Part shown: piece by piece, positions 5,462-61,159 of the stretch
How the letters are laid out: each line of letters begins with the position of its first letter
Numbering within the stretch: position 1 is the stretch's first letter
Assembly (NCBI GenBank): GCA_003483065.1
Contig: DMWY01000007.1
Span: 10,452-74,451 of the forward strand
Length of the DNA stretch: 64,000 nucleotides
Direction: 5' to 3'
Source: Candidatus Moraniibacteriota bacterium
Lineage (GTDB): Bacteria > Patescibacteriota > Minisyncoccia > Moranbacterales > UBA2206
Translations under genes and position numbers: made by a program
The notes under the pieces: generated by a model
The model's database searches: none
What the model saw: only the letters and a program-made list of their open reading frames with translations
What the model was told of the DNA's origin: nothing

Positions 5462-5621
5462 AAAAAATTTGATAATTATTAGATAATTTTGGCTTTTTTG
5501 AACCATTTATTTCACTATTGACATATTTTCCAAATCTGGTAGTATTATATATAGAAAAAGGCTTTCGGCCGTGGTTTATACACCACACTTAGCGGAGGGT
5601 CTTTTTTTATTTATCCGCATA

Positions 5622-8744: not shown

Positions 8745-9680
8745 ATGCCAGAAACAATAAAAAATTTACTTAGCCACTCAATTAATAAACTATTGAAAAT
8801 TAGCTCCACTCCGCAATTTGATGCGGAGCTTTTGCTTGGCTTTATTCTCAAAAAACCTCGAGAATATATCCTTATTCACCCGGAATATAAATTAACCAAA
8901 ACACAAGAAACAAGATACAATAAAATCTTGCAAAGACGACTCAATTATGAACCAATCGCCTATATTCTTGCTCAAAAAGAGTTCTATGGCCTTAATTTCA
9001 AGGTCACTAAAGACACTCTTATCCCCCGCCCGGAAACAGAATCGCTCGTCGAACTCGCTTTATGTAGCATGAAACCTGCCTCTTCGGCAGGCAGGCATGA
9101 AACATATAACAAAAAGAATACAACTATTGTCGATATTGGCACGGGAAGTGGAAATATAATTATATCTATTGCAAAGAACAATGAACAACAATCAAAGAGC
9201 AGTGATAAAATTAAATACTTCGGAATTGATATTTCCAAAAAAGCTTTGTCTATTGCCAAACACAACGCCAAAAAAAATAAAGTTGATGACAAAATAAAAT
9301 TTTTAAAAGGAAATTTATTAGAACCAGTTATTAAAAATATAAATTGTTACATGTTTCATGCTTCATGTTCCATGATCATCATTGCCAATCTCCCTTATCT
9401 TTCCAAAAAAATTTATTCTGCTTGCGCACCTAATGTAAAAAAATTTGAACCGCGCTCTGCTTTGCTTTCTGGAATCGACGGACTCGATCATTATGAAAAA
9501 TTATTCCAACAGATACTAAAGATACAAGACACAAGATACAAGATACAAACTATTCTCGAAATTAGTCCTGAACAAAAACAAAAAATTGCAAAATTAATCA
9601 AAAAATACTTTCCTAATGCTAATATTGAATTTCAAAAAGATTTAGCCCAAAAATGGCGCGTCGTTAAATTATTTATTTAG
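8745..9680 (+). CDS. prmC: Release factor glutamine N5-methyltransferase PrmC (HemK)
   Basis: IVDIGTGSGNI (motif I) and NLPYL (NPPY-type motif IV); the N-terminal HemK domain is downstream of prfA. Confidence 0.85.
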   Translation: MPETIKNLLSHSINKLLKISSTPQFDAELLLGFILKKPREYILIHPEYKLTKTQETRYNKILQRRLNYEPIAYILAQKEFYGLNFKVTKDTLIPRPETESLVELALCSMKPASSAGRHETYNKKNTTIVDIGTGSGNIIISIAKNNEQQSKSSDKIKYFGIDISKKALSIAKHNAKKNKVDDKIKFLKGNLLEPVIKNINCYMFHASCSMIIIANLPYLSKKIYSACAPNVKKFEPRSALLSGIDGLDHYEKLFQQILKIQDTRYKIQTILEISPEQKQKIAKLIKKYFPNANIEFQKDLAQKWRVVKLFI

Positions 9681-9695
9681 AATAAGCCCTTTTTC

Positions 9696-9774
9696 ATTCG
9701 CATGGGCGCGTTCGCCCGCCTCGACTCGCGGAGACCGCTTGTCGACGCGAGGCGGGTAGCGCGCTATTCGCATG
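9696..9774. repeat. GC-rich palindromic insert (61 nt) flanked by the 9-bp direct repeat ATTCGCATG
   Basis: ATTCGCATG at 9696-9704 and 9766-9774 brackets a near-perfect hairpin (gcgcg..cccgcctcg..tcgac..gcgg aga ccgc..gtcga..cgaggcggg..gcgcgc). It is strongly GC-rich in an AT-rich genome. Confidence 0.4.
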
Positions 9775-9786
9775 CTTATTTTCAAA

Positions 9787-9816
9787 GCAAAAAATCGCGA
9801 TTTCGCGATTTTTTGC
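9787..9816. terminator. Bidirectional intrinsic terminator (perfect 30-nt palindrome)
   Basis: gcaaaaaatcgcga tt tcgcgattttttgc: A-tract, stem, T-tract on both strands; downstream of prmC. Confidence 0.65.
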
Positions 9817-9863
9817 TTTATCAATAATACCTAAGGCATTAAAGAACAATTATTTGAGAAAGA

Positions 9864-9959
9864 CTATTTCTTTTTCTTTTTTGTTGCTTTCTTTTTTGCT
9901 ACTTTCTTTGTAGCTTTTTTCTTTGTAGCTTTTTTAGCTGCTTTCTTTTTTGCTGCCAT
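9864..9959 (-). CDS. Tiny Lys/Ala-rich basic protein (31 aa, MAAKKKAAKKATKKKATKKVAKKKATKKKKK)
   Basis: Minus-strand ORF with the strong SD-like AGGAAGGTGA 9 nt upstream of ATG (9957-9959) and stop TAG (9864-9866). Composition resembles histone-H1-like / AKKA-repeat nucleoid proteins. Below the ORF-track size cutoff. Confidence 0.35.
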   Translation of the reverse strand: MAAKKKAAKKATKKKATKKVAKKKATKKKKK

Positions 9960-10354
9960 GTTGATTTCACCTTCCTTTCTATTTTTATTTTTTTAACTTT
10001 AAAATAATTTACATTTTTATTTTCGACCTTTTGTTTTCAAGAAATTTATTTTTCCGAATGTTATCGGATGAAAATATTTTTCTTAACTTAATTATACAAC
10101 ATATATTTTTTTTTGCAATAGAAAAAAGTTATCCACAGGTGATTTTTTAAAAAAATTTTAAAATTTTTTTAAAAAATAAAATTTCAAATCACAAAAACCA
10201 AATAACAAGTAATTTTTTAAAAATTATAATTTTATAAATTCGAAACTTATTTTTTGATTTTTAAATTTTAGATATTTTAAATTTATTTGGAAGTTGCGAT
10301 TTGAACTTTGTAATTTATGCCTTTACTACGCCCTGAATAAGCCATTTTGTCTAG

Positions 10355-10383
10355 TTGACGCCCGAGGCAGATAAAGTTAAAAT
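10355..10383 (+). promoter_or_regulatory. Sigma70-like promoter TTGACG-N17-TAAAAT
   Basis: -35 at 10355-10360, -10 at 10378-10383, about 70 nt upstream of the 10456 gene. Confidence 0.45.
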
Positions 10384-10455
10384 TTAATAGAAGAACAGCT
10401 TCAACGAAAGCACGTTAAAAACAATAAATATTAAATAGAAAGGAAGGTGAAAATT

Positions 10456-11040
10456 ATGGATAACCAAGAACTAGATGAAAAAACCACAGAAGAAGAATCT
10501 ACTCAAAATAAGATGAAAGAATGGTTAGAAGATAATATGCGAATTATCGTAAGCATTCTTATCGTAATTTTGATTGCTGGAGGAATTTATTCTTATTCTA
10601 AGCGAACAGAATCTCCACAGGTAGATGAACCGACTGTAGCCGTAGATGAAGAAAATAATTCTACTACGAAACAAGAAACCGTCAATGATAGCACTGTTTC
10701 TCAAGAAAAAGAAACTTCTTCAGTTGCTACAAGCCAAGAAACAGAAAACTCTCTCATTGAAACAGCAGCCAAGGGCGACAGTCAAACAAAGCTTGCCCGA
10801 AGAGCTCTTGCTGATTTTCTTGAAAAAAATCCTGATTCAGCACTCACAGCCGAACACAAAATATACATTGAAGATTATTTGCGCAAAAATTCAGGTCACA
10901 AGGGAAGAGTTTCTGTAGGCACATCAATAGAATTCTCAAAAGATTTGATTAAGGATGCAATCTCAAAATCTAAAAATCTCAACGAAAACCAATTAAAAAA
11001 TCTACATAAATATGCCGTTCGAGTACCGTCGTTGTCATAA
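10456..11040 (+). CDS. Hypothetical single-pass membrane protein
   Basis: ATG at 10456 preceded by AGGAAGGTGA (the ORF track's GTG at 10447 is less likely). TM helix IIVSILIVILIAGGIYSY, a Ser/Thr/Glu-rich linker and a C-terminal helical domain. Confidence 0.55.
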   Translation: MDNQELDEKTTEEESTQNKMKEWLEDNMRIIVSILIVILIAGGIYSYSKRTESPQVDEPTVAVDEENNSTTKQETVNDSTVSQEKETSSVATSQETENSLIETAAKGDSQTKLARRALADFLEKNPDSALTAEHKIYIEDYLRKNSGHKGRVSVGTSIEFSKDLIKDAISKSKNLNENQLKNLHKYAVRVPSLS

Positions 11041-30525: not shown

Positions 30526-30620
30526 AGCAACGAGATAGTCGGGACAAATTCCAGTGGAAAAGTTTCAAGCAATTGAAACTACCGATATATCTGACCTCGG
30601 CGGAGAGCCGGGGTTTTATG
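30526..30620 (+). ncRNA. Candidate small RNA (~95 nt) between a plus-strand promoter and an intrinsic terminator
   Basis: TTGACA (30492-30497), 16 nt, TATACT (30514-30519); then a 7-bp stem cctcggc/gccgggg (30595-30613) followed by TTTTATGTTTTT; no ORF between them. Class unknown. Confidence 0.25.
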
Positions 30621-33498: not shown

Positions 33499-33774
33499 AG
33501 GTTAGTTTTATGAGATTAATTAAGAGAGTTTCTCTACAAATTACAAATTAAGTACAAATATACAAATGTACAAATAAAATCAAAAATATAAATTTCATTC
33601 GTAAATTAGTATATTTGTATAAGATTCGTAATTCGTAGAAATTAAAAAACGCTGATTTAACAGCGAAAAGTCAATCGCAACTAATTCGTATATTAGCACT
33701 AAACGATTATTCTGTCAAAATGAATAAAGAAATCACGCGTTGGCTAGCGACTTCTTGTATGGTAAAGTGAAACT

Positions 33775-40766: not shown

Positions 40767-42404
40767 ATGTCTGAAACACTTTATCGAAAATATCGACCGA
40801 AAAATTTTTCCGAAATTATCGGGCAAGCGCATATCGTGCGCACGCTTTCTAATTCGATAACAAATAGTCGCATTGGTCATGCTTATCTTTTCACCGGTCC
40901 ACGCGGGACTGGCAAAACTTCTATCGCAAGAATTTTAGCCAAAACAATTAATTGCGAAGATTTGAAAGACGCCATTACTTGCGAAAAATGTCCGTCCTGC
41001 AAAATTATCACTGAAAAAAAATCCTTAGACATAATTGAAATTGACGCTGCTTCCAACACTGGCGTGGACAACATCCGAGAACTTCGTGAAACTGTAGCGC
41101 TCTCCAATGCCTCATTGAAATTCAAAGTCTATATCATCGACGAAGTTCATATGCTTTCCACCGGCGCTTTCAACGCACTTTTGAAAACCCTCGAAGAACC
41201 ACCAGCTCACGTAGTTTTCATTCTGGCTACCACGGAAATTCACAAAGTTCCTCAGACTATCATTTCTCGTTGCCAAAGATTTGATTTTACTCGCTTGCCA
41301 ATTGGAAATATTATCGAAAAATTAACACTGATTACCAAGACAGAAAAAGTCAAAATTGAGAAAGAAGCACTTGAGATGATTGCCATTTCCGCCGAAGGAG
41401 GCATGAGAGACGCCGAATCACTTCTTGGACAAATTATTTCATTGGAAGACAAAAATATTACCGTCAAAGAAGTAGAAGAAATTCTAGGCACCGCTGACAA
41501 AAAAACCGCTGAAGAAATGGCTGAGATGATTGTGAAAAAAAATTCCTCAGGCGCGATTGCAAAAATCAATGAGCTTTTGGAAAATGGTTATGATTTGGAA
41601 ATTTTCAACAAATCCCTAGTTAACTATCTTCGCCAGATGATGATTGTGAAGATTGATCCGAGTCTCAAGAAATATTTTTCCGCCGAAATGACTACTGAGC
41701 GTTTGGAAAAAATGGTGAAACTTTGCGAAACGGCCGAACTACCCCAAATCATTTCTGCTATAAATTTATTCATGGAAGCCCAAAGCAAAATTTCAAGTTT
41801 CATCCTCCCCCAACTTCCCCTAGAAATTGCCGTCATCAAAGCCACTCATAAATTTCCAGTAGAAAAAGTTGAATATGAAATTGAAAAACCAGAAATCCCC
41901 CTTCCCCCTTCGGGGGAAGGTGCCCGAAGGGCGGATGAGGGGGAAACTAATTCAGACAGTAAAAACATAATTACTAAAACAAAAATAATAAAAGAAGAAA
42001 TTCAACCAGTAATAGTGGAAGAAAAATTTGTGGATAATGGCCAAGATTTGGACATGGAAAAAGTGCGTGCTAATTGGAAAAAACTACTTATTGATATCCG
42101 CCCCTTCAACCATTCCCTCTCTGCCTTGCTATGCAATTGCCAGCCAACCCAGGCAAAAAAGAACATTCTTACCCTCGCCACACCCTATGACTTTTATCGA
42201 GAAAGATTAAACGACGCCAACAATAAATTGACAGTTGAGCAAGTGTTTAGTAAGATATTAAAATCGACTATTCGGATTGAAATTGTGATCGACAAGAACC
42301 TAATCCCAAAAACCCAAGAAGAACAACCACCCAAAAAATCCGAACAAAACTCCCTCCTCACTGATGCATTGGAAATTATGGGCGGGAAAGTCGTGGAAGA
42401 GTAG
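40767..42404 (+). CDS. dnaX: DNA polymerase III subunit gamma/tau
   Basis: YRPKNFSEIIGQAHIVRTL, GPRGTGKTS, Zn module CEKCPSCK, and the SRC motif within IISRCQRF. Confidence 0.9.
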   Translation: MSETLYRKYRPKNFSEIIGQAHIVRTLSNSITNSRIGHAYLFTGPRGTGKTSIARILAKTINCEDLKDAITCEKCPSCKIITEKKSLDIIEIDAASNTGVDNIRELRETVALSNASLKFKVYIIDEVHMLSTGAFNALLKTLEEPPAHVVFILATTEIHKVPQTIISRCQRFDFTRLPIGNIIEKLTLITKTEKVKIEKEALEMIAISAEGGMRDAESLLGQIISLEDKNITVKEVEEILGTADKKTAEEMAEMIVKKNSSGAIAKINELLENGYDLEIFNKSLVNYLRQMMIVKIDPSLKKYFSAEMTTERLEKMVKLCETAELPQIISAINLFMEAQSKISSFILPQLPLEIAVIKATHKFPVEKVEYEIEKPEIPLPPSGEGARRADEGETNSDSKNIITKTKIIKEEIQPVIVEEKFVDNGQDLDMEKVRANWKKLLIDIRPFNHSLSALLCNCQPTQAKKNILTLATPYDFYRERLNDANNKLTVEQVFSKILKSTIRIEIVIDKNLIPKTQEEQPPKKSEQNSLLTDALEIMGGKVVEE

Positions 42405-46943: not shown

Positions 46944-47522
46944 ATGCATTACAAAAATAAAATTTTTGCGGAAAAAGAAATTCGCGGGGAGCATTTTTTG
47001 GATTGTCAGTTTTCTGGATGCGCCTTTCCGAAAATCAATCTAAAATTCACCGCTTTTAATAATTGCGTCTTTACGGCTTGTGATCTTTCTTCCATCGATT
47101 GTGAAAGCACTGGCTTTGCCAATTGTTCATTTCCTGAAAGCAAACTAAGCAACCTAAATTTCTTAGCGGTGAAATTCAGCGATTGTGATTTTTCTGGTGC
47201 TATGATGCAAAATTGTGTTTTTGAGAAACGCCCAGGGAAGAATGATTTGTCAGCCAAAAAATTCTCTCTTGCCTCTTGCAAATTCGAAGAAACTGATTTG
47301 TCGGGCAGTATATTTTTTCTTTGTGATTTAACTGGCGTTAGCTTTAGAAACTCCAAACTAGAAAAAGCCGGCTTTGAAAAATGCATCCTGAGGAAAGCCA
47401 ATTTCACTGGCGCGACAATTACCGGCGCACATTTTACCGACTGCACAATTGAAAAAACTATTCTAGATTTTCAAGGCTTCATTCACTTTGGCAATTCGCA
47501 TGGCTTTGAGTTGAATAGCTAA
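46944..47522 (+). CDS. Pentapeptide repeat protein
   Basis: Tandem A(D/N)LxF-type pentapeptides (CDLSSIDCESTGFANCSFPESKLSNLNFLAVKFSDCDFSGA...). Confidence 0.8.
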   Translation: MHYKNKIFAEKEIRGEHFLDCQFSGCAFPKINLKFTAFNNCVFTACDLSSIDCESTGFANCSFPESKLSNLNFLAVKFSDCDFSGAMMQNCVFEKRPGKNDLSAKKFSLASCKFEETDLSGSIFFLCDLTGVSFRNSKLEKAGFEKCILRKANFTGATITGAHFTDCTIEKTILDFQGFIHFGNSHGFELNS

Positions 47523-61048: not shown

Positions 61049-61159
61049 TTTTTATAGTTTACTAAAGTACGAATCTAGCTAAATTACCTGCCTCGCCGGC
61101 AGGCGGGCGAATAAAGATAATAAGGATTAGTAATTTCGTTTAATTCGTATTTTCGTAAA

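Follow-up and report, generated by a model that had tools for sequence, protein, structure and literature searches.

The DNA considered here, called the window below, is a stretch of 64,000 nt from Candidatus Moraniibacteriota bacterium (GenBank assembly GCA_003483065.1, contig DMWY01000007.1, positions 10,452 to 74,451), and the feature in question is a GC-rich palindromic element of 79 nt in the 3' untranslated region (UTR) of prmC, the gene for the release-factor glutamine methyltransferase. The window is AT-rich (mean GC 35.4%) and identical to contig LBSI01000002.1 of the metagenome-assembled genome (MAG) GCA_000991855.1, and the closest homologues of its prmC carry the labels Candidatus Moranbacteria or Moraniibacteriota. 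The element is very probably a nested composite, in which a mobile hairpin of 42 nt (the core) lies inside a separate small repeat (the outer unit), upstream of the real terminator. The features of the locus are as follows; relatives and the loci taken from them are given L numbers.

8745–9680, plus strand: prmC, with the composite element in its 3' UTR.
9687–9774, plus strand: block missing from L003, L005 and L006, made up of the outer unit of ~46 nt and the 42-nt core; its left boundary is approximate.
9696–9704, plus strand: left ATTCGCATG of the outer unit, present in the core-less relative L007 and at unrelated loci.
9705–9714, plus strand: left half of the outer mini-hairpin, consisting of G, the stem GCGCG (9706–9710) and the loop bases TTCG.
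9715–9756, unstranded: mobile core CCCGCCTCGACTCGCGGAGACCGCTTGTCGACGCGAGGCGGG, a GC-rich imperfect palindrome; these 42 nt are absent at the orthologous site of L007.
9757–9765, plus strand: right half of the outer mini-hairpin, consisting of the loop bases TAG, the stem CGCGC and then T.
9766–9774, plus strand: right ATTCGCATG of the outer unit.
9787–9816, unstranded: bidirectional intrinsic terminator, with an A-tract, a perfect GC-containing stem and a T-tract.
9864–9959, minus strand: Lys/Ala-rich open reading frame (ORF) of 31 codons, convergent with prmC; it is called as a gene in relative L004 only, and its DNA is conserved in all relatives.

Syntenic loci from relatives were obtained via their prmC homologues, and a five-way alignment revealed the locus in three states. 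In L003, L005 and L006 the prmC stop codon runs almost straight into the terminator. In L007 (GCA_030654225.1) there are ~46 nt more, reading ...CCCTTTTTC ATTCGCATG GGCGCGTTCG TAGTGCGCT ATTCGCATG, that is, CCCTTTTTC followed by a hairpin between two copies of ATTCGCATG; at the junction GGCGCGTTCG|TAGTGCGCT the outer GCGCG stem is there but the inner 42 nt are not. The window has an L007-like block plus 42 nt between TTCG and TAG, and the core starts 35 nt past the prmC stop codon, its insertion point lying after G9714 in the loop TTCG^TAG (the caret marks the point of insertion). The flanks of the window and L007 agree at 95% of 293 aligned positions, and the sole gap is the 42-mer, with no duplicated bases.

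Much of this layout had been recognized in an earlier reading of the window by itself (the original prediction). The direct repeat ATTCGCATG at 9696–9704 and 9766–9774 is indeed present (one further copy occurs in the window, at 47494), the 61 nt between its two copies (9705–9765) do fold into a long hairpin, and this is the most GC-rich segment of the window, the richest 60-mer (9704–9763) reaching 76.7%. The whole palindrome was, however, taken to be a transposable element of the miniature inverted-repeat class (MITE), 61 nt in length, that had inserted into a single ATTCGCATG and produced a 9-bp target-site duplication. The repeat is exact and immediately flanks the palindrome, as that model would have it, and 9-bp duplications are made by transposases of the IS1, IS4 and IS903 types. 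Against this, L007 has both copies of ATTCGCATG and the outer stem without the core, so the 9-bp repeat predates the core and is not its target-site duplication; empty sites do exist, as had been anticipated, but they are empty of the 42-nt core, and the one in L007 keeps both copies of the repeat. The layout ATTCGCAT...ATTCGCAT also recurs at unrelated loci, whereas a true duplication would vary from copy to copy, and no duplication is seen at any other site of the 42-mer. A small, multi-copy, palindromic and mobile element is therefore present, as proposed, but its boundaries had been drawn one layer too far out.

Judged from these comparisons, the outer layer is a separate small dispersed repeat of ~36–46 nt that is older than the core. 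Its layout consists of ATTCGCATG, a 5-bp stem, a 7-nt loop (TTCGTAG), the complement of the stem, a T and ATTCGCAT(G). It occurs without the core in L007, L029, L018/L050 and L046, and with it in L013 and L018, and since it is found in both forms at unrelated loci the 9-bp repeat belongs to the host repeat unit. In L046 the 5-bp stem is wholly different and still complementary (ACCGA/TCGGT), while in L014 and L024 the 8-mer ATTCG(C/T)A(T/G) forms arrays without any stem or hairpin, which also speaks against a 9-bp duplication created by insertion of the palindrome; that origin is extremely unlikely. The last five codons of prmC (window 9640–9680) differ as a block among relatives, reading ..RVVKLFI in the window and L007 and ..RVAIFEI in L003, L005 and L006, and over the rest of prmC L007 is only 69% identical to the window by protein alignment. 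The 3' end of prmC and the outer repeat unit look recombinationally mosaic when these sequences are compared.

Termination at this locus is served by the palindrome at 9787–9816, which is common to prmC (plus strand) and the small Lys-rich ORF (minus strand), lies outside the mobile element, and is conserved throughout the five relatives examined, being identical in L003, L005, L006 and L007. Relatives without the element keep the same terminator, so the element is not needed for termination, in agreement with what had been argued from the window. Nor does the core resemble an intrinsic terminator, as it is followed by TAGCGCGCTATTCGCATG, with no T-run (U-tract). The region from 9685 to 9830, comprising hairpin and terminator, folds with −69.5 kcal/mol (z = −7.1; 0 of 200 shuffles as stable), and a search of the element against Rfam 15, at the gathering threshold and at E ≤ 10, gave no match, with chance terminator-like matches falling on the neighbouring palindrome only. 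The copy in the window is probably inert, doing no more than giving the 3' UTR of prmC a stable stem.

The core is organized as three stems, CCCGCC/GGCGGG, TCGAC/GTCGA and GCGG/CCGC. Its termini, CCCGCCTCG and CGAGGCGGG, are perfect terminal inverted repeats that do not vary in the alignment of variants; the variants agree throughout the first 15 positions and almost completely at their 3'-terminal bases, and differ in the apical part only. Covariation is seen in the apical stem as double changes from GC to AU (5 cells, a value reached by 0 of 500 shuffles), and the basal stems are invariant. The stems gcgcg/cgcgc, tcgac/gtcga and gcgg/ccgc of the original prediction are thus real, the compensatory changes backing the apical one. 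An alternative minimum-free-energy structure, with a 9-bp basal stem, TCG/CGA and GAG/CUU, was set aside since it lacks the covariation support that the three-stem structure has. Read as codons, the core has a length of 14 and no stop in any of the six frames.

Further copies had been expected elsewhere, and copies or variants of the inner 42 nt were found at 61 distinct sites, a count that comes from nhmmer and a relaxed pattern, with half of the core fixed by the search pattern. They represent 25 sequence variants, with lengths of 41, 42, 44 or 45 nt, and nested forms occur in addition. In a species-representative genome set, a 22-mer of the core gave 31 exact matches in 10 MAGs, with up to nine in one genome; the MAGs are mostly labelled Moranbacteria or Patescibacteria, and three are labelled only as 'bacterium'. 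JGI metagenome contigs held another 37 matches. No copy was found in viral contigs, phage records or plasmid records, so there is no evidence for a phage or plasmid as carrier. The 64-kb window contains no second copy of the 42-mer, and a 44-nt variant that lies upstream of prfA in L003, at TTCG^TA, is not shared by the window. As far as searched, the family is confined to genomes of the Moranbacteria type within the candidate phyla radiation (CPR).

A contig from an independent Logan assembly (SRR6487541; L002) shares the left flank of the window, runs on through 30 nt of the core and breaks exactly at core position 30, which we take to be the break expected when a de Bruijn graph of k = 31 (the value assumed for Logan) enters a repeat. 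Palindromes can come from library artefacts, for example as chimeric palindromes, and this is an independent contig that stops inside the element. The same orientation-specific 42-mer is nevertheless present in NCBI MAGs from several studies, in JGI metagenomes, in ENA and in Logan, at all 61 sites taken together, with coherent reading frames where it lies in genes, and the contig break falls where a genuine repeat would give one. The independent contig and the recurrence of the 42-mer in dozens of independent assemblies show that it is not an assembly artefact, and the probability of such an origin is practically negligible.

Comparison of filled and empty sites elsewhere gave the same picture as the prmC locus. 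RIFOXYA12_FULL_35_19 (L017) is filled and CG23_combo_35_22 (L035) empty at one AT-rich repeat, and the converse holds at another locus; in both cases the flanks are 95–97% identical and the gap is exactly 42 nt. In smpB, L013 is filled and L074 empty, with nearly identical flanks and a 42-nt difference between the codons for R and L. At the filled/empty junctions there is no duplication, and at most one base is ambiguous; four filled/empty pairs show the clean 42-nt difference, without the target-site duplication of a MITE. By these alignments the 42-mer is evidently a discrete unit that comes or goes precisely, neither duplicating nor removing bases of the target. Two further sites are in partial duplicates of a tRNA. 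In L022 an intact tRNA-Arg(GCG) adjoins a partial duplicate, the anticodon loop of which is interrupted by the core (GGACCG^CAACC), and in L072 a 45-nt variant occupies the same anticodon-loop position of another partial copy of tRNA-Arg(GCG). The partial duplicates correspond to the 3' half of the tRNA in L022 (340–560) and to its 5' half in L072 (~10500–10600), and they might mark an integrated element with a tRNA attachment site.

The core has a strong preference for one target, TTCG^TA, though it also inserts elsewhere. Among 59 that could be scored, 26 are TTCG^TA on either strand, a hexamer that makes up ~0.1% of positions (P ~1e-62), and in a first set the core was found at TTCG^TA in both orientations (15 versus 6). 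Over all sites, TTCG precedes the element at only 44%, and sites other than TTCG^TA have no common flanking sequence. TTCG^TA sites are held by two kinds of AT-rich host repeat: the outer unit, and a palindrome of ~110 nt built of TACGAAA/TTTCGTA motifs, of which the examined loci have nine or more copies that are empty and about eight that are filled. Within a uvrC-like ORF of L046 (~10250–10400), an array of the 8-mer ATGCGAAT/TACGAAT together with a 42-nt core is apparently read through in frame, so AT-rich host repeats can also lie inside genes. The only cluster of TTCGTA in the window is at 33598–33637 (attcgtaaatt...gattcgtaattcgtag), which could be an unoccupied array of targets for the 42-nt element.

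About 19 of the 61 sites, each independent, are in long ORFs, which were named from conserved sequence motifs without a database search. They include uvrA (three positions), uvrB, a uvrC-like gene (two positions), smpB, tatD (two positions), rfbB and msrB, as well as recG-like, PNPase-like and argS-like genes and several unnamed ones. Between two UvrA proteins of 65% identity, clean inserts of 14–15 residues occur at three different sites, each of them a gap in the other orthologue. Thirteen of the 19 genic sites share a single frame and orientation, encoding PASTRGDRLSTRGG, or more generally PASTRGD(R/D)(L/S)STRGG (P = 7.6e-7 if the six frames were used equally). As insertion at the DNA level is blind to frame, this bias must come from selection on the peptide, and the insert is then kept in the mRNA and translated; the frame usage implies that genic inserts are translated and filtered by selection. 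With 14 codons and no stop in six frames, the core survives in essential genes as a translated loop of 14 residues. When the protein databases were searched with a 43-aa concatenate of the peptide PASTRGDRLSTRGG, a single peptide being too short as a query, no match was obtained at E ≤ 10.

SmpB provides a series of such inserts at one place. A search with the insert-bearing protein, which is free of the bias of a DNA pattern, showed inserts of 14–15 residues at the same position (KKR^LIK) in 12 of the 120 best homologues, ranging from intact (PASTRGDRLSMRGG) to decayed (PASPTSLGKSTSQGG, PVRNVSQAKRSDTGG), and the nearest relatives of the filled query, at 97% identity, are empty. From the decay series and the empty near relatives, the inserts appear to arise or be lost repeatedly at favoured sites and then to drift, which is as expected for selfish DNA, and the 42-nt family as a whole is best read as such.

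The distribution across genes and genomes also bears on whether the element could serve its host, for example as a stabilizer of mRNA 3' ends, a binding site for protein or a processing signal, kept under selection. Several features would suit such a role: the position in the 3' UTR just before a terminator, the compensatory changes that conserve the hairpin, and the high GC of the element in a genome of 35% GC. Moreover, at rfbB and other orthologous filled sites the core retains 41–42 of its 42 nt while the flanks are 71–86% identical (flank identities below ~0.7, which are AT-rich background under that scoring, were not used); half of the core had been fixed by the search pattern, however, and for the unascertained half the excess of conservation is only moderate (P = 0.003–0.06 per pair). 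Yet presence and absence differ between near-identical genomes at several loci and in both directions, and relatives that lack the element here have an unchanged terminator. There is no shared theme of location, as the sites include 3' UTRs, promoter-proximal positions, at least 12 housekeeping genes and pseudo-tRNA fragments, in both orientations; the frame bias points to translation rather than processing out; old SmpB inserts drift; and Rfam has no match. A benefit to the host is, on this evidence, very unlikely to account for the family.

Spread mainly by homologous recombination or gene conversion through flanking homology, without dedicated transposition, would likewise explain why the core is more conserved than its flanks. 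It would also fit the sites that are filled in distant lineages and empty in close relatives (smpB, and also rfbB and uvrA), and the mosaic appearance of prmC, the C-terminus of which is common to the window and L007 only. Recombination cannot, however, make the first copy at 61 unrelated sites, and the sharp 42-nt boundaries, the TTCG^TA preference and the nesting call for a site-directed insertion step; in addition, 42 nt is near the minimum length for RecA-dependent exchange. As the main route of spread it is distinctly unlikely. In combination with transposition, homologous recombination of filled alleles would probably add to the patchiness at shared sites, though it could not seed new ones.

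The core is not the only GC-rich hairpin of this kind, and two smaller ones were noticed in the window itself.

9075–9095, plus strand: 21-nt GC-rich mini-hairpin CCTGCCTCTTCGGCAGGCAGG, in frame in prmC and encoding PASSAGR.
61087–61107, plus strand: second 21-nt mini-hairpin CCTGCCTCGCCGGCAGGCGGG, at TA^CGAA (TTCG^TA on the other strand).

The first of these sites is empty in L003 (atgaaa^catgaaa), and in L006 it is occupied by another 21-nt variant, which resembles CCTGCCTCTTCGGCAGGCAGG more when read in the opposite orientation. The apparent 9-bp repeat GCATGAAAC around 9075–9095 is a pre-existing tandem CATGAAACATGAAAC split by the insertion, and the mini-hairpin in prmC seems to be related to the core in kind, though smaller. 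CCTGCCTCGCCGGCAGGCGGG at 61087–61107 adjoins TACGAA/TTCGTA motifs, and the same 17-nt hairpin occurs in L061, with a near-identical variant in L025. Nested forms were found in L059 (~2780–2880, within uvrA) and L026 (~5512–5580), where a GC hairpin of ~25 nt (CGCCCGCTTCGCCAAATCGAGGCGAG or its complement) sits in the apical part of the core. By their arrangement, these loci and the composite sites indicate that the core both inserts into other repeats and is itself a target of insertion. A GC-rich double hairpin of another sequence is located at 41898–41945 in the window (CCTTCCCCC-TTCG-GGGGGAAGG, then GCCC-GAA-GGGC); it lies in an apparent ORF, where it encodes ...PLPPSGEGARRADEGE..., has no significant Rfam match, and could represent one more hairpin inserted in frame, from another sequence family.

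As to how so short a sequence moves, the core would be non-autonomous and depend on an enzyme acting in trans, the gene for which would lie elsewhere in the genome. A duplex of 42 bp is not long enough to be excised as a double-stranded circle. Seamless resealing without duplication is characteristic of single-strand transposition, and for this reason the class of enzyme that is favoured, tentatively, is a hairpin-recognizing one of the HUH/Y1 type, acting by single-strand 'peel-and-paste' as in IS200/IS605 and in REP/RAYT (repetitive extragenic palindromes and the REP-associated tyrosine transposase). To our knowledge this is the sole well-characterized prokaryotic route that leaves no duplication, reseals the donor seamlessly, depends on a hairpin and not on long terminal repeats, and acts beside a short preferred tetranucleotide. 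It is also possible, though more doubtful, that the hairpins form an undescribed, CPR-specific class of ultra-small GC-rich transposon (42 nt, and 21 nt for the mini-hairpins), which would go in and out seamlessly by no known transposase family, home to TTCG^TA in other repeats, and colonize essential genes, among them uvrABC, smpB, recG and argS, as a translated peptide of 14 residues. The enzyme could then be, for example, a host structure-specific nuclease/ligase or an unrecognized HUH-like enzyme. A composite transposon was considered for L034, where two copies lie 850 nt apart, and was rejected, one copy being in rfbB and the other upstream of rfbC, as two separate insertions. Among the examined partial-genome loci there was none in which two cores flank a transposase-like ORF, as would be looked for in the parent insertion sequence (IS) of a MITE.

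A number of observations weigh against the reading of the core as a selfish hairpin moved at TTCG^TA by an enzyme of this type. More than half of the sites lack TTCG, and insertion occurs in both orientations at TTCG^TA, whereas a mechanism of the IS200/IS605 type normally fixes the orientation. Predicted hairpin loops are not preferred as insertion points: targeting of such loops, an idea that came from the outer loop and the two tRNA anticodon loops, was dropped when folding of the 58 reconstructed empty sites put 18 of them in loops, no significant excess over the 14 expected. A tblastn search of ~600 kb of partial Moranbacteria loci with IS200 and IS608 TnpA sequences, which is a weak test, gave a single spurious match, antisense to an ftsA-like gene. 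Copy number in the element's own genome is based on 64 kb only, with one 42-nt copy there, and any one presence/absence difference may be read from sequence alone either as insertion or as precise excision. Finally, the conservation of the core at rfbB and the other orthologous filled sites, beyond that of the flanks, could reflect constraint, selection or gene conversion and not purely selfish spread, although half of the core was fixed by the search pattern and decayed inserts do occur.

Known elements that resemble the core in form and size class are those of REP/REPIN type, and a domesticated element of this type with its RAYT transposase was considered as an explanation. REP/REPIN elements with RAYT, a Y1 HUH enzyme, are palindromes tagged with GTAG and CGTC (PMC3733652). 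Like the core, REPs are GC-rich imperfect palindromes of 20–40 nt that depend on a hairpin, make no target duplication, are often extragenic and often lie in composite clusters, nested in repeats. The core, on the other hand, has no conserved GTAG or CGTC head, the bases outside the 42-mer being variable and GTAG arising only where the target supplies TAG. It reaches at most nine exact copies per MAG, about ten per genome and not hundreds, and about a third of its sites (~19 of 61) are within genes, unlike the high-copy extragenic REPs. No Y1/RAYT-like ORF was found in the examined loci, again by the weak test with TnpA queries. Such an origin is unlikely, if somewhat less so than spread by recombination.

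Other comparisons are instructive for what they share with the core and what they do not. The palindrome-associated transposable elements (PATE) derived from IS200/IS605 also lack the usual terminal inverted repeats and target duplication, excise seamlessly and lie beside a short specific sequence. They are, however, at least 100 nt long, with two distinct subterminal hairpins and one orientation, whereas the core is a single quasi-symmetric hairpin of 42 nt that keeps neither to a fixed orientation nor to a fixed tetra- or pentanucleotide. Classical bacterial MITEs include Correia/NEMIS, RUP and MITEAba12 (reviewed in PMC10969869). They are, like the core, non-autonomous and multi-copy with inverted-repeat ends, and may supply proteins with extra peptides or UTRs with structures; the core, too, is dispersed, over 61 sites, and has several empty ones. 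MITEs differ in making target-site duplications and in deriving from an IS with the same ends, neither of which is seen for the core in the loci examined, and since it leaves no duplication the core is not a MITE in the classical sense. It is also smaller than any MITE known to us.

In function the core comes closest to Rickettsia palindromic elements and to the GC clusters of yeast mitochondria. The Rickettsia palindromic elements (RPE), reportedly described by Ogata et al. in 2000 under the title 'Selfish DNA in protein-coding genes of Rickettsia', are ~100–150 bp long, form eight families (RPE-1 to RPE-8) restricted to Rickettsia, and are not GC-rich islands; we know of no transposase for them. 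They too are short palindromes of a reduced, AT-rich genome, found between genes and in frame in housekeeping genes, where they are translated as extra surface peptides, and they have a strong bias to one frame, as does the core at 13 of 19 genic sites. The core differs in its length of 42 nt, its CPR hosts, its preferred TTCG^TA target and its precise polymorphism between near-identical genomes, so that the likeness appears to be one of functional analogy, not homology, set apart by the described sizes and hosts. A second parallel is found in the GC clusters of yeast mitochondria and the related 'byp' of Magnusiomyces, GC-rich hairpins of organellar genomes. No mobilizing activity is known to have been found for RPE or GC clusters in decades. 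GC clusters and byps are short GC-rich palindromes that invade an AT-rich genome, nest in one another and can lie in coding sequence (a general review is PMC8811140). Unlike the core, the clusters usually have short target bases (TAG or AG) duplicated at their sides, and the ribosome passes over byps without translating them; the frame bias of the core, by contrast, indicates ordinary translation.

The searchable literature on CPR, Patescibacteria and Moranbacteria yielded no description of the element; small selfish palindromic repeats do not appear to have been described in this phylum, and this family appears to be new. Genomes of CPR/Patescibacteria are usually called streamlined and poor in mobile DNA. 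The present locus reveals tiny GC hairpins that occur lineage-wide in such hosts, are demonstrably polymorphic between genomes that are nearly identical, nest, and lie in frame in core repair and translation genes. They account for odd protein inserts of 7, 14 and 15 residues rich in Pro, Ala, Ser, Arg and Gly, for some contig breaks, and for local GC spikes that can be mistaken for RNA genes, and the core offers a marker by which strains within Moranbacteria populations can be told apart. Which activity mobilizes a hairpin of 42 nt seamlessly is a tractable question, as the filled/empty pairs and the TTCG^TA target make it testable. If the hairpins were indeed to form an undescribed class, they would be a bacterial counterpart of the mitochondrial GC clusters.

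Several smaller features of prmC and the window were noted in passing. CATG is rarer than expected in the window (108 observed versus ~209 expected), and four CATG occur within 25 nt of prmC (9350–9374, CATGTTTCATGCTTCATGTTCCATG, encoding ..CYMFHASCSM..). In the prmC of relatives there are CATG-rich segments coding for Cys, Met, Phe and His at variable positions, e.g., KNCFMFHVSCFM, which suggests, from the sequences compared, yet another small coding repeat. Positions 9519–9546 of prmC hold a tandem 14-nt repeat, AAGATACAAGA(C/T)AC, in a region of variable length among homologues. Elsewhere in the window, at 30527–30596 on the plus strand, there is a full-length match to the DUF3800-II RNA motif (RF02961), with 75 bits against a gathering score of 43.

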